Source: a virus
Taxonomy: Duplodnaviria > Caudoviricetes
Strand: one strand, 5' to 3'
DNA length: 64,000 bases
IMG/VR virus record: IMGVR_UViG_3300021399_000111
Coordinates: 1 to 64,000 of that record
Each line of letters starts with the position of its first letter. Position 1 is the first letter of the stretch. Of this stretch, positions 134 through 55,959 are shown piece by piece. Position numbers and translations under genes: made by a program. Below the pieces are notes generated by a model. That model saw nothing but the letters and a program-made list of their open reading frames with translations, ran no database searches and had not been told where the DNA came from.

Positions 134-286
134 TTATACAAATTTCGGGATCCTAGGGCAGAAAAATTTGTGCAATTTGTCTATTGACAAAAAACTGAAA
201 TGATGATATAATGAAAAACTCGGTGCATTTCCGCAAAGAGCGCCCGGAAATGCGCCGCCAATAAAAAAGGCGCCCCGAAGGGCGCC
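134..286 (+). repeat. composite repeat unit 1 (palindrome + promoter + GC hairpin + terminator)
   Basis: TTATACAAATTT(134)/AAATTTGTGCAA(164); TTGACA(184)-17-TATAAT(207); stem CGGTGCATTTCCG/CGGAAATGCGCCG 221-257; A-run then GGCGCCC-CGAA-GGGCGCC 269-286. Confidence 0.85.
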
Positions 287-298
287 AAAGAGAGGTCA

Positions 299-460
299 TC
301 AGATGCGGATCCGCCTGGCTTCCTGAATCGGGAGCAGAGGCGCCGACTTTTCGGCGGTGACATCCTCAAAGTCAACCGTGTACTTCTGTCCAGAGGCATT
401 AGCCTCGTTCATCGTGCGAACAACAGTGCCATCAGCAAGAACATAGATAAGATTTCTCAT
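299..460 (-). CDS. 53-aa hypothetical protein (below ORF-track cutoff)
   Basis: AAAAGAGAGGTAAACAAA-ATG; MRNLIYVLADGTVVRTMNEANASGQKY...RRIRI, double TGA stop; perfect promoter TTGACA-17-TATAAT at 546-518. Confidence 0.8.
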   Translation of the reverse strand: MRNLIYVLADGTVVRTMNEANASGQKYTVDFEDVTAEKSAPLLPIQEARRIRI

Positions 461-542
461 TTTGTTTACCTCTCTTTTGTGAATTGTTGTGGGGGTGTTC
501 CCCTGTTTTCTAAAATCATTATAGCATTATTTTTTTTATTTG

Positions 543-779
543 TCAACCTCTTTTTACAAGAAAGTTGAAAATAATCAATCCAAGGGTGATTGCAAAGCAG
601 GCGCAATCCTTAACCTTGTCAGCGGTAGGGCGCTCAAGGATAAAGCAACGGATGGCGGAAATGGTGTTACATCCGAGATAGATAAACTGTCCGAGATAAA
701 AATTTTCGCCAACTACGCACTGGGCAACAATCAGACCGATAAGAACAACAAACTGGAGATTTTCAACAAACTTTTTCAT
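543..779 (-). CDS. small membrane protein (78 aa, about 3 hydrophobic segments)
   Basis: Start moved to MKKFVENLQF because of RBS AAAGAGAGGT; hydrophobic stretches. Confidence 0.75.
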   Translation of the reverse strand: MKKFVENLQFVVLIGLIVAQCVVGENFYLGQFIYLGCNTISAIRCFILERPTADKVKDCACFAITLGLIIFNFLVKRG

Positions 780-850
780 ACTCACTACCTCTCTTTCTCT
801 CTCTTGACAATAACAGTATAACACATTACAGGATAAATACAACATACAAA

Positions 851-970
851 TTGCACAAAATTTGGATTGTATTTTTGTGCAAGATTACTATTGACAGAAA
901 ATGCGCGCCATGCCGAGTTATGCACGGCGCGCCAATAAAAAGAGAGGTGCGGAAAGTTTCCGCACCTTTT
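851..970 (+). repeat. composite repeat unit 2 (no -10 box)
   Basis: TTGCACAAAA(851)/TTTTTGTGCAA(872); TTGACA 891 runs straight into GCGCGCC..GGCGCGC hairpin 903-932; terminator AGGTGCGGAAA-G-TTTCCGCACCT 945-967. Confidence 0.85.
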
Positions 971-985
971 AATTTTGGTTCTTTG

Positions 986-1408
986 TTATGCGAGGGAGTA
1001 AAGGCTATCTCTCACCTCGATTTCTACAGAGTAATCATAATTTCTGACAGTAATCTTATAAGGGTCTGAATATCTCTGCTTCAAGAAGCCGCTTGCGCAC
1101 AGTCTACGGCAAGTCGCGGTAGCTCTCTGCACCGTCCAACGGATACCATTTTCTCTAAGATATTCTACAATATCCTTAATCTTACATTCTCCCCCTAACT
1201 TCTCAAAAAATTCCATAACCACGGAGATATCCTTGCCAAGCTGAATCATTTCCATAAAATTACTAGAAGAAACTGAACTGCATGCTGAAGCTTCGGTAAC
1301 GCGAATGTTTCCGCGATGATTGCGCCAATAAAATGCATATCTATCACACATTACCGCAAGTCCAATCATTTCAAGATTCTCTTTTGTCATAAAATTGCTA
1401 ACTTCCAT
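986..1408 (-). CDS. putative winged-helix DNA-binding protein
   Basis: C-terminal KIKDIVEYLRENGIRWTVQRATATCRRLCASGFLKQ looks like a wHTH; RBS spacing favours ATG 1408; promoter TTGACA-17-TAAAGT at 1463-1435. Confidence 0.55.
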   Translation of the reverse strand: MEVSNFMTKENLEMIGLAVMCDRYAFYWRNHRGNIRVTEASACSSVSSSNFMEMIQLGKDISVVMEFFEKLGGECKIKDIVEYLRENGIRWTVQRATATCRRLCASGFLKQRYSDPYKITVRNYDYSVEIEVRDSLYSLA

Positions 1409-1459
1409 TTTCATTTACCTCTCTTTCTATAACTACTTTATCATATAAAGGCTTTTTTG

Positions 1460-1900
1460 TCAAGCCCCTTTTTTAAATTTTTTAATTTGTTTTGTAGTCA
1501 GAAGAGTTGCACCGTCAAATTTGATTTGTACTTCTCTTCCGTCGATATTAATATCACCTTGCATCCAAAAAGGAATTGTATCTTTTTCCCAAGTCTGTCC
1601 ATAATATTCAGTGACAAGTTTCTCGAAAATCTCACCTTTATTATACTTATCATTAACCAACTGGCACTCTGAACCTAAGCACACAGGATTTTTCTTCATA
1701 AGTTGTGCCTTATAGGCTTTCTTGACGCGGAGGCGGAGATTGTCGCCCTGATTGCGGCTTGCCTCCTCTGCGGAAAGATATCTAGGCATGATCTCCGCAA
1801 CATTTACCATATAAATATTTTTATCATAGGTAAAGCCTAAAATATAACTATCCGCCGCCGACTTATCTCTATACCATTTCATCATCGTTTTCTTTGTCAT
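1460..1900 (-). CDS. hypothetical protein (146 aa)
   Basis: ORF with AAAGAGAGGT RBS and promoter TTGCAT-17-TATAAT at 1966-1938; GEIFE...GDINIDGREVQIK is weakly PD-(D/E)xK-like. Confidence 0.7.
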   Translation of the reverse strand: MTKKTMMKWYRDKSAADSYILGFTYDKNIYMVNVAEIMPRYLSAEEASRNQGDNLRLRVKKAYKAQLMKKNPVCLGSECQLVNDKYNKGEIFEKLVTEYYGQTWEKDTIPFWMQGDINIDGREVQIKFDGATLLTTKQIKKFKKGA

Positions 1901-1975
1901 CTGTTAAGTACCTCTCTTTCCCTTACCTTGTAAATACATTATACTCCCCGGTAGGCAAAAATGCAATAGGGCAAA

Positions 1976-2132
1976 TTGCACAAAATTTTGGGATAAAATT
2001 TGTGCATTTTGCTGATTAAAAAGTGCTTGACAAAATGTTAAAGGTATGGTATAATATAAAATTCGGCGCGCCGCGGAGTGGTATGATCGCAGGCGCGCCG
2101 GCAAAAAGAGAGGGCGGTCAAATGACCGCCCT
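1976..2132 (+). repeat. composite repeat unit 3
   Basis: TTGCACAAAATTT(1976)/AAATTTGTGCAT(1996); TTGACA(2027)-17-TATAAT(2050); CGGCGCGCC..GGCGCGCCG 2064-2100; AGGGCGGTCA-AA-TGACCGCCCT 2111-2132. Confidence 0.85.
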
Positions 2133-2564
2133 TAAAGCATCAATAATGTTATCCGTAGCATCTACTGTTGCGCCTAAGTCCCAGGCGGTGCGGTTCTGCT
2201 CTTCATCATCTACGAGAATTCCTTTTCCGTATCTTCTGCAAGTATCTGCTTTCCGCACTCCATAAGGGGTAACGATGATTGCGTCAAGCAAGTCACTTAA
2301 ACAACGCTCCCAGAGCCATTTCCGCTTAACCTTTGCGACAGCCTTGTCATAGTCAGCGTTTCTTTCCTTGCTTCCCCAAGAGATAACACCGAGATTGTAG
2401 CCCCGCATTTTCAAATCAGCGAAAAGCGCAAGCAAATCAATTTCTGCATAAAGCGGGCGGGCTTCCGCATAAGGTCTGACATTGTGAGCCCTAAGATCAT
2501 CAAGCCAGCCATCTACTCCATACAGGTCTGCAATAGTACCATCCATGTCAAACCAAATCCACAT
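2118..2564 (-). CDS. HAD-superfamily phosphatase, 5'(3')-nucleotidase-like
   Basis: Motif I FDMDGT, motif II ISW, K, motif IV LVDD; start MWIWFD after the RBS; promoter TTGCTT-17-TAGTAT at 2618-2590. Confidence 0.8.
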   Translation of the reverse strand: MWIWFDMDGTIADLYGVDGWLDDLRAHNVRPYAEARPLYAEIDLLALFADLKMRGYNLGVISWGSKERNADYDKAVAKVKRKWLWERCLSDLLDAIIVTPYGVRKADTCRRYGKGILVDDEEQNRTAWDLGATVDATDNIIDALRAVI

Positions 2565-2627
2565 ACTGTTTACCTCTCTTTCTGTATACATACTAGCATA
2601 AATTGCAGGATAAAGCAATAGGTAATA

Positions 2628-2763
2628 TTGCACAAAATTTGCTATAAAAATTTGTGCAAATTTACCATTGACAGAAAAAACGCGTCGTGGGGATTCATCC
2701 ACGACGCGCCAAACAAATGTTATTTAATAAAATAAAAAGAGAGGTGGCGGTTTCCCGCCACCT
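2628..2763 (+). repeat. composite repeat unit 4 (no -10 box)
   Basis: TTGCACAAAATTT(2628)/AAATTTGTGCAA(2648); TTGACA 2668; perfect stem CGCGTCGTGG/CCACGACGCG 2681-2708; AGGTGGCGG-TTTC-CCGCCACCT 2742-2763. Confidence 0.85.
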
Positions 2764-2769
2764 GTTATT

Positions 2770-2967
2770 TTAATTCTCCTTTTCAGTGACAACAATACGA
2801 ATGTTATTAACAGCGTCCTCATCGTGATTACCCAGAATCGTATCAAGAAGGTAATCAAGATCTTTAATCTTATCGCCATCATCATACATAACTAAAAAGG
2901 CAAAACTCTTAAGGACTTGTCTTTCTTCTTCTGTTAAATAAAGCGTTGTTTGTGTGTTCATTTTCAT
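2770..2967 (-). CDS. hypothetical acidic protein (65 aa)
   Basis: RBS AAAGAGAGGTG; perfect promoter TTGACA-17-TATAAT at 3023-2995. Confidence 0.75.
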   Translation of the reverse strand: MKMNTQTTLYLTEEERQVLKSFAFLVMYDDGDKIKDLDYLLDTILGNHDEDAVNNIRIVVTEKEN

Positions 2968-3003
2968 AGTTATTCACCTCTCTTTCTATTGTTTATTATA
3001 GCA

Positions 3004-3219
3004 TTAAGATTTTGATTTGTCAAGCTTTTTTCTGCGGTCAATGTGAACAATAATTGCACGGATAATCGCGCAGGTAATTGCTACAGGCCAAAGGATACCC
3101 GCAAGTAAATCCTCAAAATCGGCTATTAAGCAACCGCTACCAATGCTAATAAAATTTATAATGTGAGCGATAATAAAGTAAGCAAGAGCAATGATAAGGA
3201 TAATTTCAAGGGTAGTCAT
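3004..3219 (-). CDS. small membrane protein (71 aa, 2 TM segments, basic tail)
   Basis: Start MTTLEIILII after AAAGAGAGGTAAACAAA; perfect promoter at 3273-3245. Confidence 0.75.
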   Translation of the reverse strand: MTTLEIILIIALAYFIIAHIINFISIGSGCLIADFEDLLAGILWPVAITCAIIRAIIVHIDRRKKLDKSKS

Positions 3220-3279
3220 TTTGTTTACCTCTCTTTCTGAAGTCATTATATCATTTTTATTTTGGAGTGTCAAGAACTT

Positions 3280-3417
3280 TTTTTGAGGTAGTTTCCATCG
3301 GGTGGACAGGCTTTCAAGTGGTAGTTTCGGCTTTGTCAAGTCAATTCCATCACCCTATTTACTTTGTCAGTGCCGATTATCTCTTCAAGAGGTATCCGCT
3401 ACCTTTTCCCTCTCTGT
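3280..3417 (-). ncRNA. candidate structured non-coding RNA (about 140 nt)
   Basis: Promoter TTGACA-17-TATACT at 3452-3424, no credible ORF/RBS downstream; internal complementarities GGTAG/CTACC (x2), TCGGC/GCCGA, GGGTG/CACCC, CTCTT/AAGAG. Confidence 0.45.
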
Positions 3418-3470
3418 GATTATAGTATACTGCTAGCCTTCCCTACTGTCAAGAGAAAGTGTAAAAAATA

Positions 3471-3619
3471 TTGCACAAATTTTGGGATCCTTTGAAGTGA
3501 AAATTTGTGCAAATTGTCTATTGACAAAATGTGGCGGAAATGATATAATTAAAATTTCGGCGCGCGTGGATCGTGCGCGCGGCGCCAAACAAAAAACAGG
3601 GAAGGCTTTAAGCCTTCCC
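3471..3619 (+). repeat. composite repeat unit 5
   Basis: TTGCACAAATTT(3471)/AAATTTGTGCAA(3501); TTGACA(3521)-17-TATAAT(3544); GCGCGCG..TGCGCGC hairpin 3560-3580; GGGAAGGCTT-T-AAGCCTTCCC 3599-3619. Confidence 0.85.
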
Positions 3620-3910
3620 ATAGAGACGCGCCAGAGCGCTTTCCAATTCATCATCGTCGAGGGTGATGAGTTCGATGTCTTCCCCTTCCCAGTCATCTTC
3701 CTCATACTCCTCGCCGAAGTAGACGCCCTGACAGTCAGGACACATGCCAGAGACAAGCGCTTCCCGCTCTGTTGCGGTCAGATAGGGAAAAGCGTTCTGG
3801 ACGAGCGCCCCTCTCTGATAGCGGATGTAGTCCTCTTCCCGCACCGCCACAGAGAAAAGCTTCCCGCAGAAAGGGCAGACAATAGTAAGTTCAAGATTTC
3901 TGTTCATCAT
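3608..3910 (-). CDS. zinc-ribbon protein with acidic tail
   Basis: CPFC...CPDC pair, tail EEYEEDDWEGEDIE; RBS; promoter TTGACA-17-TAAAAT at 3965-3937. Confidence 0.75.
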   Translation of the reverse strand: MMNRNLELTIVCPFCGKLFSVAVREEDYIRYQRGALVQNAFPYLTATEREALVSGMCPDCQGVYFGEEYEEDDWEGEDIELITLDDDELESALARLYGKA

Positions 3911-3972
3911 AGTTATTTACCTCTCTTTCTAGGTCTATTTTACTATTTATTATTGTTAATGTCAAGCACTTT

Positions 3973-4113
3973 TTACAGAACTTTTTCAATAATCTTGACG
4001 CGGTCTCCGCTGGCATCGATCATCACCTTGATAACCACCTGTCCCTTGCTAGCCTTGCAGGCTTCCTTAGCGGTGCTGAAGTTCTTTCCTCTAGTCTTGT
4101 AGTAGATAGCCAT
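3973..4113 (-). CDS. 46-aa basic hypothetical protein (below ORF-track cutoff)
   Basis: AAAGAGAGGAAA RBS; MAIYYKTRGKNFSTAKEACKASKGQVVIKVMIDASGDRVKIIEKVL*; promoter TTGACA-17-TATTAT at 4186-4158. Confidence 0.75.
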   Translation of the reverse strand: MAIYYKTRGKNFSTAKEACKASKGQVVIKVMIDASGDRVKIIEKVL

Positions 4114-4204
4114 TTTATTTTCCTCTCTTTTGCTGTTGTTCTCTTGTTTCTGTAATAATAATACTGCTGTATACTCATTTTGTCAAATAATTTTGATAAA
4201 AAAG

Positions 4205-4379
4205 TTGCATAAATTTCAGGATCAAATACCAGAAATTTTTGTGCAATTTGTCTATTGACAAAATATTGAAACATGTGGTATAATGAAAAATCGCGCGCGA
4301 GAGGACCATTCGCGCGCCATCGCAAGTTGTCATTTTTACATTTGCGCAAAAGAAAAAACTGCGTTTCCGCAGTTTTTCT
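4205..4379 (+). repeat. composite repeat unit 6
   Basis: TTGCATAAATTT(4205)/TTTTTGTGCAA(4236); TTGACA(4255)-18-TATAAT(4279); GCGCGCGA..TCGCGCGC 4293-4317; AGAAAAAACTGCG-TTTC-CGCAGTTTTTCT 4351-4379. Confidence 0.85.
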
Positions 4380-4382
4380 CTC

Positions 4383-4577
4383 TTACTCCTCGAAGTCGTC
4401 CATCTCTTCTGCGTAGTACTGGTCAAGGCTACGGTAGCCAGTCCGCACATACACAACTGCGTTGAGTACCTGTTCCCAAGAGCCTGCCATCAGGTTGCGT
4501 GCCAGATTCAACTCGTCAGCGGTTGCGATTCCAAGTTCTACAATCTGGTCATAATCCATCATTTCCTTCTGTGTCAT
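4383..4577 (-). CDS. hypothetical acidic protein (64 aa)
   Basis: RBS AAGAGAGGTAAAC; promoter TTGACA-17-TAGAAT at 4651-4623. Confidence 0.75.
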   Translation of the reverse strand: MTQKEMMDYDQIVELGIATADELNLARNLMAGSWEQVLNAVVYVRTGYRSLDQYYAEEMDDFEE

Positions 4578-4659
4578 AGTGTTTACCTCTCTTGCTTTTG
4601 TTGTTATCTCTTTGATGATTTTATTCTATCACCTTTTGTTGATTGTGTCAACCCCTTTT

Positions 4660-4872
4660 TTAGTATCCATACTCACCATGCGCCCAAGCGTTCCACCAGA
4701 AGAACTCTGCCATTTCATCATCGTTGTGCTTTACGATAGACCAACCCCAACCCATCTTATCACTCTTTGCAAGTGCCTTTTCTGCCTCTTCCTTGCTGAT
4801 GTGCCCGTAGCCCATGGGAGTGTGTCCCTTTCTGTTGATGATCGAGTATCTGTAATCTTCTACGGTTTTCAT
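4660..4872 (-). CDS. hypothetical protein (70 aa, Trp-rich C-terminus)
   Basis: RBS AGAGAGGTAAACAAA; promoter TTGACA-17-TATTAT at 4942-4914. Confidence 0.75.
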   Translation of the reverse strand: MKTVEDYRYSIINRKGHTPMGYGHISKEEAEKALAKSDKMGWGWSIVKHNDDEMAEFFWWNAWAHGEYGY

Positions 4873-4960
4873 TTTGTTTACCTCTCTGTTGTTGTTTCCT
4901 TGTTTCTGTAATAATAATACATTAAAAAGAAAAAAGTGTCAACACTTTTTAAAGAAAAAG

Positions 4961-5160
4961 TTGCACAAAATACACAGATCTTGTTTGTGCATTTTGTACA
5001 TTTCTTTGATAATTTTTTAACAAGATCCTTTGTGCATGTTGTACACATTTTAGGATCATTTAGCCTGTATCTTTGTGCAATTTGCCTATTGACAAAAGTT
5101 GAAAGATGTAGTATAATGGAAGAACGGCGCTTGACGTGATAATGCGCTCGCCTGCGCGCC
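4961..5160 (+). repeat. composite repeat unit 7 (terminal, extra half-sites)
   Basis: Half-sites TTGCACAAA 4961, TTTGTGCAT 4984 and 5029, TTGTACAC 5039, TTTGTGCAA 5072; TTGACA(5089)-17-TATAAT(5112); GGCGC..GCGCC 5126-5160. Confidence 0.8.
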
Positions 5161-5541
5161 TAGCAAATTATTCCAGTTTAATTATAACTATTTGATTTTC
5201 AACTATTCTGTTCTATTGTTTATTCTATCTTGTTTGTTTGCTTTTGATACGCCTGTATTTATTTGTTATCTTTTTCTATCATTTTGTAGAGGGGTCTGTT
5301 TTTAGAGAGGGTCTCTGACAAAGCTCGAATCTACGTAGATTCCTGGTACTTTTTTCCGGGGGGAGTATTTTCGGGAAAATTTAAATGGAGATTGTAAAAA
5401 TCTTTTTGCCTCCACAACTCCCCCACCAAAAATTTTTTCTATTTTAAAAAACGAACACTATTTTAGGCTTTTAAAAAACGATATATATTTTCTCATTTCC
5501 CGCAAAAATATACCGCATGCATATTTAATTTCCGTTTTCGC

Positions 5542-5570
5542 TTGACATTGTCAAAAATTTTTGGTATAAT
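5542..5570 (+). promoter_or_regulatory. sigma-A-type promoter of the packaging operon
   Basis: TTGACA-17-TATAAT with extended -10 TG. Confidence 0.8.
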
Positions 5571-31100: not shown

Positions 31101-31214
31101 ATTGGACTTATTACATTAATTTATTTAAATAACTTTTCTATTTATATAGCAATAAAATTTGACAAATTACAATATTTTTGATATAATATAAGAGATAAAA
31201 GGAGGTTTATCATA

Positions 31215-54888: not shown

Positions 54889-54949
54889 GACATTTATCCC
54901 CTTTTATCATTTTTCTATATATATTATATCATATTTTTTAAAAAAAGTC

Positions 54950-54981
54950 AAAAAAAGAGGGGGAAGACTGAAGTCTTCCCC
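54950..54981 (-). terminator. terminator of the flagellin gene
   Basis: GGGGAAGAC-TTCA-GTCTTCCCC-CTCTTTTTTT on the minus strand. Confidence 0.8.
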
Positions 54982-54998
54982 AAATTTTATAAAATTGA

Positions 54999-55811
54999 TT
55001 AGCCAAGTAATGCAAGAACACCTGCATTAGCTTGATTAGACTGAGCCAACATAGCTTGTCCCGCCTGCGCAAGAATATTCGCATTTGAATACTTAACCAT
55101 TTCTGTTGCCATATCAGCATCACGAATCTGGCTTTCCGCAGAAGTAGTATTTTCAACAACATTATTAAGATTGTTGATAGTATGCTCAAGACGATTCTGG
55201 ACAGCACCAAGATCAGATCTTTGGCTACTAACAGTCTCTAAAGCAGTTTTAATAGAACTAATAGCTGCAGTAGCACCATCATAATCAGATACATCTAAAG
55301 AATCAACACTAAGAGTTCCAGCATCCATTGCCCCAATAGAAATCTCGATGTTTTGTCCGCCTTCAGCTCCGACCTGAAGTTTCTTACCAGTGAAGTTACC
55401 ATCTAACAAATTCTGCTCATTGAAAGTTGTTGTTGAAGCAACACGGCTAATTTCAGATGCAAGAGCATCGATTTCAGACTGAATGTACCCGCGATCAGTA
55501 CTCATATTAGTGTCATTTGCAGCTTGAGTGGCGAGTTCATTCATTCTCTGAAGCATATCATGTACTTCATTTAATGCACCTTCCGCAGTTTGAACAGCGG
55601 AAATTCCATCTTGGGCATTTCTTACCGCTTGAGTTAATCCTCTTACCTGTCTACGCATCTTTTCAGAAATAGCTAAACCAGCCGCATCATCAGCAGCACG
55701 GTTAATTCTATAACCAGAAGAGAGCTTTTCTGTTGACTTAGATAAAGTAGATTGAGTTAAGCCAAGCATTCTGTTAGAATTCATTGCGGTTAAATTGTGT
55801 TGAATAGTCAT
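54999..55811 (-). CDS. fliC: flagellin (270 aa, short Lachnospiraceae-type, FliC/Hag)
   Basis: IQHNLTAMNSNR, EKLSSGYRINRAADDAAGLAISEKMR, QTAEGAL, LQRMNELATQAAN, RSDLGAVQNRLEH, SQIRDADMA, AMLAQSNQ. Confidence 0.97.
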   Translation of the reverse strand: MTIQHNLTAMNSNRMLGLTQSTLSKSTEKLSSGYRINRAADDAAGLAISEKMRRQVRGLTQAVRNAQDGISAVQTAEGALNEVHDMLQRMNELATQAANDTNMSTDRGYIQSEIDALASEISRVASTTTFNEQNLLDGNFTGKKLQVGAEGGQNIEISIGAMDAGTLSVDSLDVSDYDGATAAISSIKTALETVSSQRSDLGAVQNRLEHTINNLNNVVENTTSAESQIRDADMATEMVKYSNANILAQAGQAMLAQSNQANAGVLALLG

Positions 55812-55820
55812 AATTTTTTT

Positions 55821-55928
55821 CCTCCTTGAAAATAAAATACCACATCCTTGTGGCAGTTAATATATTATAAAACTCTTATGAGTTTTATTTTCTATAATTA
55901 TTATAACAAAAATTTTATCTTTTGTCAA
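55821..55928 (-). promoter_or_regulatory. flagellin sigma-A promoter and leader with CsrA-type sites
   Basis: TTGACA(55928)-17-TATAAT(55905); 9-bp inverted repeat 55867-55888; hairpin GCCACAAGGATGTGGT 55854-55839; SD CAAGGAGG. Confidence 0.8.
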
Positions 55929-55959
55929 TATTAAATAAATTTTATCTTTATTATATTAT

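Follow-up and report, generated by a model that had tools for sequence, protein, structure and literature searches.

The flagellin gene described here is best read as a host-derived cassette that has been kept by a large phage and in which only the transcriptional input has been exchanged. A sigma-A type promoter of the phage would drive a gene that retains a bacterial flagellin leader, and the gating of this leader by CsrA and FliW is proposed by analogy with known flagellin genes. We give this reading a probability of about 0.7. The window, i.e., the whole stretch of DNA that was analysed, comprises the first 64 kb of the 141,935-bp record of a complete virus (~142 kb) with direct terminal repeats, which is metagenome-derived and comes from gut or rumen. 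The coordinates of the flagellin region are read on the minus strand. The phage is probably virulent and probably infects a Lachnospiraceae host; the search of the whole genome (141,935 bp) revealed neither a tyrosine integrase nor a TnpB/TldR-like domain (PF07282).

The flagellin gene is closed by a terminator that is followed at once by the next phage promoter:

54999..55811, minus strand: flagellin coding sequence, 270 aa, with its ATG at 55811 and the Pfam domains Flagellin_N and Flagellin_C
54952..54981, minus strand: G+C-rich intrinsic terminator GGGGAAGAC-UUCA-GUCUUCCCC plus U-run (hairpin 54981-54960; consensus scan), which closes the cassette
54923..54951, minus strand: promoter TTGACT-17-TGaTATAAT, which serves the DNA polymerase III alpha gene and forms the downstream edge of the insertion slot

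Both terminal helical domains are present at full length, according to Pfam (Flagellin_N, E 5e-46, 156.5 bits; Flagellin_C, E 9e-26, 90.4 bits) and to an alignment in which residues 1-269 match the solved 270-aa flagellin chain 9hpz_A without gaps. The nearest homologues are flagellins of rumen and gut Lachnospiraceae with 70-79% identity, values of 78-79% being reached, and belong to a family of ~270-aa proteins of the MVVQHNLTAM type. The GenBank phage collection yielded weak DNA matches (67-79%) to the coding part alone, none of them informative. The gene is flanked on one side by a 144-aa ORF (ORF144) and on the other by the phage gene for DNA polymerase III alpha. The U-run of the flagellin terminator extends into the -35 of the polymerase promoter.

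The promoter of the flagellin gene is composed of the following elements:

55923..55928, minus strand: -35 hexamer TTGACA (consensus scan)
55900..55922, minus strand: 17-nt spacer AAAGATAAAATTTTTGT, ending in TTTTTGT with TG at -15/-14, and -10 hexamer TATAAT (55905-55900)
55889..55899, minus strand: initial transcribed region AATTATAGAAA, with the predicted start at about 55893/55892 inside a TAGAAA motif

This promoter matches the sigma-A (sigma-70 type) extended -10 consensus at 12 of 12 positions and has the TG as well. The whole phage contains 28 perfect TTGACA-17/18-TATAAT sites, compared with a mean of 0.37 expected from Markov-1 simulations; half of them (14/28) are located in the window, and 25 of the 28, as counted from the promoter list, carry the TGn. 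The T-tract motif AAATTTTTG of the flagellin spacer is common to the promoters at 5542, 10201, and 46042, and a near-identical spacer is found at 31159 and, beyond the window, at 94122. In addition, TAGAAA occurs 5-7 nt after many phage promoters, including that of flagellin. The existence of a class of 28 promoters, the common T-tract spacer and the TAGAAA motif indicate, therefore, that the flagellin promoter is of the type proper to this phage.

The perfect sigma-A promoters look like two subclasses. Those at the genome ends (window 184-5542, genome 133930-141718) have A-rich spacers ending in AATGn and leaders of the type TAGAAAG(A/T)GAGG, and the internal ones, the flagellin promoter among them, have AAATTTTTGn spacers. 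The two subclasses may correspond to promoters of early and of middle timing. As an alternative -10 of the flagellin gene, the internal TATAAT at 55869-55864 was discarded, having neither a usable -35 nor a TG; the resulting transcript would still contain the GGA-loop hairpin of the leader.

The sigma-28 signals of bacterial flagellin genes are missing from this region. The core of the sigma-28 -10 element, CGATA, is absent within 220 nt upstream of the flagellin ATG both in the window and in L002, a contig of a second phage, whereas 100 of the 108 regions examined upstream of bacterial flagellin genes contain it, and 78 of the 108 contain TAAR-N14-18-CGATA, which both phages lack. The full sigma-28 pattern, TAAA-N15-17-(G/C/M)CGATA(A/T), is also missing upstream of the phage leader. 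Conversely, a 12/12 sigma-A match was found in none of the 108 bacterial regions, the best value being 11, reached once. These bacterial regions agree with the sigma-28 consensus TAAA-N16-17-MCGATAa of Butyrivibrio and Roseburia (Neville 2013, PMC3720852). At the consensus extended -10 promoter of the phage, the host sigma-A RNA polymerase would start near 55893, and the transcription of flagellin would thus be independent of sigma-28 and of the release of FlgM after hook completion.

The flagellin leader has 82 nt and contains three elements, i.e., a 5' stem-loop, a hairpin whose loop carries a GGA, and a Shine-Dalgarno sequence that includes another GGA:

55867..55888, minus strand: 5'-proximal stem-loop, a 9-bp inverted repeat ATAAAACTC-ATAA-GAGTTTTAT with loop AUAA (MFE and centroid folds)
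55838..55855, minus strand: predicted CsrA BS1-type hairpin UGCCACA-AGGA-UGUGGUA, with GGA at 55847-55845 (covariance model R1)
55817..55832, minus strand: weak UUUUC/GAAAA hairpin whose loop holds the Shine-Dalgarno AAGGAGG (55827-55821), a putative BS2-type second GGA

The 5' stem-loop begins ~5 nt from the predicted 5' end of the mRNA, and the hairpin at 55855-55838 displays the loop AGGA in both the MFE and the centroid fold. The fold of the whole leader, with its two predicted stem-loops formed, has a z of -2.9. The first GGA is separated by 22 nt from the second one, a distance that one CsrA dimer could span, and from the predicted start the candidate BS1 would occupy +45..+49 and the candidate BS2 +67..+73. 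The corresponding sites are BS1 A51-A55 and BS2 C75-G82 in B. subtilis hag, and BS1 TGACAAGGATGT and BS2 CTAAGGAGGG in C. difficile fliC (PMC8523840). The loop of the phage hairpin contains the exact octamer CAAGGAUG, on which the CsrA RIP-seq enrichment peaks in the fliC 5'UTR of Oscillibacter (Clostridia) (bioRxiv 10.1101/2025.07.22.666180), and the consensus TTCAAGGAGGAA of the Shine-Dalgarno block is invariant in bacterial leaders. The closest bacterial flagellin leaders (L005-L008, about -60 to -110 from the ATG) show extra GGA motifs (AGGAA, and CGGAU twice) in or around the 5' stem-loop; judged from their sequence, these are possibly additional CsrA sites that the phage leader is missing.

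An earlier sequence-only reading of this DNA had pointed out the perfect extended-TG promoter (55928-55900), the spacer motif that it has in common with the promoters at 5542, 10201, and 46042, the lack of a sigma-28 -10 element, the GGA hairpin with a second AAGGA in the Shine-Dalgarno, and the 9-bp inverted repeat (55888-55867), and all these observations have been borne out and stand above chance.

The leader belongs to a recognisable family. The bacterial upstream regions were taken from the genes of the closest Lachnospiraceae flagellins and provided 105 unique leaders, 76 of which show, 18-45 nt before the ATG, a stem of 5 bp or more topped by a loop that contains GGA, versus 1.0 in shuffles. 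These 76 hairpin-bearing leaders, with the window excluded, constitute the alignment A1 that is the basis of the covariance model R1. The A1 helix covaries, with a score of 0.593 versus 0.169 in shuffled alignments (0 of 500 shuffles reached 0.593) and with 102 cells changed on both sides versus 31 in shuffles, and the signal vanishes when the 3' partner is slid. The 76 training leaders were preselected for the hairpin, which inflates the percentage of paired positions but not the covariation; this preselection does not account for the many stem types found around an invariant GGA.

When applied to the phage, R1 gives 55.5 bits (E ~1e-9) on the flagellin leader (55809-55873), the sole strong match in the window, and the next-best match there (21.5 bits) covers the Shine-Dalgarno part alone. 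Bacterial flagellin leaders outside the training set score 49-56 bits, a range that includes the phage value. Over 527 kb of related phage DNA, the single strong match was the leader of L002, at 52.2 bits, with a background maximum of 22 bits, and five whole bacterial genomes yielded 1-2 matches each, those checked against loci being flagellin genes. Rfam contains no family for this leader, since every match was far under the gathering score. Judged by R1, the phage leader is a full-scoring member of a Lachnospiraceae flagellin-leader family, i.e., of the type of the host or donor lineage.

The hag leader of B. subtilis and the Hag-FliW-CsrA partner switch are reportedly the subject of work by Yakhnin in 2007 and by Mukherjee in 2011. 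In this bacterium, hag is repressed by CsrA bound at two sites, one in a hairpin and one at the Shine-Dalgarno, and FliW lifts the repression except when cytoplasmic flagellin occupies FliW (PMC7652899). The Hag-FliW-CsrA system runs at a stoichiometry of ~1:1:1, is hypersensitive to perturbation, and prevents a harmful accumulation of flagellin (Oshiro 2019, PMC6529632). The flaA mRNA of C. jejuni is not only repressed by CsrA, but also titrates it (Dugar 2016, PMC4894983). An adjacent fliW-csrA pair, with fliW immediately upstream, is present in all five genomes (5/5) of the likely donor lineage that contain the closest flagellins. Lachnospiraceae are likely the donor lineage, as judged from the similarity of the flagellins (quick tree, SH-aLRT 93). 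No CsrA, FliW, FliS, FlgM, or sigma-70-family sigma factor was found in the complete phage genome. A match to FliS (19.8 bits) lies inside fliD and under the cut-off, and it was rejected as spurious.

If the phage leader works like those of hag in B. subtilis, fliC in C. difficile, and flaA in C. jejuni, a dimer of host CsrA would bridge its two GGA sites and block the ribosome unless CsrA is held by FliW. As FliW would be free only during flagellin export, the phage flagellin would be made in proportion to the export capacity, with no pile-up in the cytoplasm.

The contig L002 is syntenic with the window, containing a helicase gene, small ORFs, an ORF144 homologue, flagellin, terminator, promoter, and polymerase. 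Its flagellin is 72-73% identical to that of the window, and the two copies show a dN/dS of 0.14 with a dS of 1.7, which is saturated. The GC3 of the phage flagellin copies is 25-29% (25% in the window, like its phage neighbours), versus 50-56% in the nearest bacterial genes. The low dN/dS and the phage-like GC3 indicate, therefore, that the flagellin gene is a long-standing resident under purifying selection. Despite the saturation of silent sites, the Shine-Dalgarno block and the loop AAGGAU are both retained in the leader of L002. Compensatory changes distinguish the hairpin stem of L002, CUUC/GAAG, from the CCAC/GUGG of the window, and the 5' stem-loop of L002 is analogous, with a wholly different sequence. 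The terminator also has a homologue in L002 (3840-3870), with compensatory stem changes (GAAGAC/GUCUUC versus GAGAAC/GUUCUC; window 54960-54981). The independent phage flagellin leaders available for comparison number only two (n=2).

Upstream of the L002 flagellin gene there is neither a sigma-28 motif nor a good sigma-A promoter (best match 9/12), and this gene may be transcribed by read-through from upstream genes. L002 thus has the leader without the sigma-28 site and without a good promoter, indicating that the loss of sigma-28 is common to both phages and that the perfect sigma-A promoter is specific to the window phage. Since the L002 gene lacks a promoter that could be recognised as its own, flagellin can be kept without strong sigma-A transcription signals. 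In a quick tree, both phage flagellins fall with the Lachnospiraceae bacterium P6A3 group (SH-aLRT 93) on long branches, but the tree does not place them as sisters; the support for a single acquisition comes from the synteny and not from the tree.

The interval between ORF144 and the polymerase gene (window 54889-55959; loci L098-L257) is variable, its length lying between 36 and 2305 nt in ~80 related loci that have both flanks. In these relatives it often contains GIY-YIG-like or other small ORFs (287-aa, 212-aa), or nothing, and the empty state consists of a terminator-like hairpin and the polymerase promoter. Apart from the window, the slot is occupied by flagellin only in L002/L105 and in L184, where the copy is truncated. 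This slot is a cargo hot spot of the phage family. Two viral-labelled IMG/VR contigs (L003 and L004, GC 44%) encode flagellins that are 75-77% identical over the N-terminal half and have the leader hairpin GCAGAUA-AACGGAUG-UAUCUGC, with no CGATA and no sigma-A promoter within 220 nt. Their composition is unlike that of the window phage, and they may be prophage or host fragments.

Two broader proposals of the sequence-only reading are supported by these data. The first, that the promoter had been swapped to a sigma-A type and the CsrA-type leader of the host kept, agrees with the R1 score of the leader, with the TAAR-N14-18-CGATA of the bacterial genes, with the phage promoter class and with the fliW-csrA pair of the likely donor lineage. 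The second, that this is a domesticated, functional gene, agrees with the synteny of L002, the dN/dS, the phage-like GC3 and the gap-free, full-length alignment to 9hpz_A.

The phage also encodes the filament cap protein FliD (457 aa; ~89459-90832, plus strand), outside the window. R1 has its second-best match in the phage genome, a modest one (25.3 bits, E 0.014), immediately in front of fliD, and the sequence there folds into three parts (z = -4.0): a 5' stem-loop analogous to that of flagellin but different in sequence, a hairpin GAGAAGA-AGGA-UUUUCUC, and a weak hairpin whose loop holds the Shine-Dalgarno. An extended -10 promoter precedes this leader (region 89330-90832, plus strand; L096:1430-1575 and L097 in the locus list). 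In contrast, the five closest bacterial fliD genes abut flaG and have a plain Shine-Dalgarno and no such leader; the R1 matches in these loci are ~1 kb downstream of fliD, where flagellin is expected in the order flaG-fliD-fliS-fliC. A pattern search detected no FliD relatives in IMG/VR. As far as its sequence and predicted fold can tell, the phage appears to have placed a flagellin-type leader on fliD, which argues that the leader is wanted and not merely tolerated. The presence of a phage cap protein together with a full-length flagellin that looks competent for assembly makes incorporation into filaments the most likely purpose. Phage flagellin and FliD would most probably build host filaments, or re-tip them, with phage subunits during infection.

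An alternative that we consider rather improbable is that the gene acts mainly as a regulatory decoy, its strongly transcribed leader titrating CsrA or its protein titrating FliW, so that the Hag-FliW-CsrA circuit and other CsrA targets would be reset and the role in the filament would be secondary. The titration of CsrA by C. jejuni flaA mRNA (PMC4894983) and the hypersensitive, ~1:1:1 switch of B. subtilis (PMC6529632) offer precedents, and the consensus promoter and the presence of the motif on two phage transcripts fit this idea as well. However, each leader has just two GGA sites, L002 has no strong promoter, and the purifying selection extends over the whole protein, termini included, as seen in the dN/dS and the full-length alignment; the phage-encoded cap protein also argues for assembly. 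By analogy with flaA for the RNA and with FliW binding for the protein, a decoy effect is possible and would be compatible with the filament role.

It is less probable still that the hairpin and the Shine-Dalgarno arrived with the gene as hitch-hikers and persist as an element for translation initiation or mRNA stability, CsrA being irrelevant to the phage. 5' stem-loops and strong Shine-Dalgarno sequences make Gram-positive mRNAs more stable, and the Shine-Dalgarno region is the strongest conserved block of the leader. Against this explanation, the two phages have the same loop, AAGGAU, at a dS of 1.7, yet the stems differ by compensatory changes; a similar hairpin precedes the phage fliD and none of the five closest bacterial fliD genes; and in the five host genomes the motif matched only flagellin genes where checked.

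That the leader hairpin followed by UUUUAUUUU is a transcription attenuator or terminator is very unlikely: the consensus scan flags 55855-55838 as terminator-like, but the stem has 7 bp with 3 G-C, the U-run is interrupted, and the bacterial homologues have the hairpin without a U-run, so termination is not the conserved function. Least probable of all is that bacterial flagellin DNA was misjoined into a phage contig of this metagenome-derived record, as a phage promoter and terminator flank the gene, its GC3 resembles that of the phage neighbours and not the bacterial values, and two other samples yielded contigs with flagellin in this slot (L002/L105 and L184).

The reading of an exchanged promoter on a retained leader can be compared with known systems. 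Like B. subtilis hag, the phage gene has a leader of ~80-90 nt with a GGA in a hairpin loop and another GGA over the Shine-Dalgarno ~22-24 nt downstream, and its donor lineage has adjacent fliW-csrA genes. Unlike hag, which is sigma-D dependent and controlled by FlgM, it has a consensus sigma-A type promoter, and the phage brings neither CsrA nor FliW; the binding of CsrA is here a prediction. With the fliC genes of Lachnospiraceae (Roseburia, Eubacterium, Butyrivibrio; PMC3720852) it shares the protein family, at 70-79% identity, and the leader (55.5 bits with R1), but not the TAAA-N16-17-MCGATAa promoter, and its codon composition has become phage-like. In C. jejuni flaA (PMC4894983), too, a short flagellin 5'UTR forms stem-loops with two ANGGA sites, supported by compensatory changes, and the mRNA is able to titrate CsrA; unlike the window gene, flaA is chromosomal and sigma-28 dependent, with no phage context. 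The Enterobacter phage FRphi, carrying tldR and fliC_P, likewise encodes a flagellin isoform that is thought to alter the host filament (bioRxiv 10.1101/2025.07.22.666180, PMC13418256). However, FRphi is temperate, proteobacterial, and silences the host fliC by the RNA-guided repressor TldR, whereas the window phage has no TnpB/TldR-like domain or tyrosine integrase and, unlike FRphi, has also fliD and a CsrA-type leader.

Phage-encoded flagellin was, thus, already known from temperate Enterobacter prophages with TldR, and what is new here is the exchange of the promoter with the CsrA-type leader kept. The literature searched contains no report of a phage flagellin that combines a sigma-A promoter with a retained leader of this type. 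The analysis also defines a Lachnospiraceae flagellin-leader RNA family that is absent from Rfam, and the 82-nt leader with its two GGA sites is a directly testable construct.

A more specific scenario, which we put forward tentatively, is that a non-temperate phage bypasses the sigma-28/FlgM gate, deliberately keeps the CsrA/FliW gate on flagellin, and has acquired a like gate on fliD. If this were true, phage subunits and cap would be made only in cells with a running export apparatus, and the phage would re-tip or rebuild the flagella of its host, e.g., so that the infected cell stays motile or a flagellar receptor is masked, with a simultaneous input into the CsrA regulon of the host.

The phage gene would represent a natural promoter swap on one of the best-studied homeostasis circuits of bacteria, in which selection in a virus has dropped the checkpoint on transcription but not that on translation. 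The implication would be that uncontrolled cytoplasmic flagellin is costly even in infection, or that the phage aims to engage CsrA/FliW. The remodelling of flagella by phages, known from temperate prophages of Proteobacteria, would thereby be extended to large phages that infect Firmicutes of gut and rumen.
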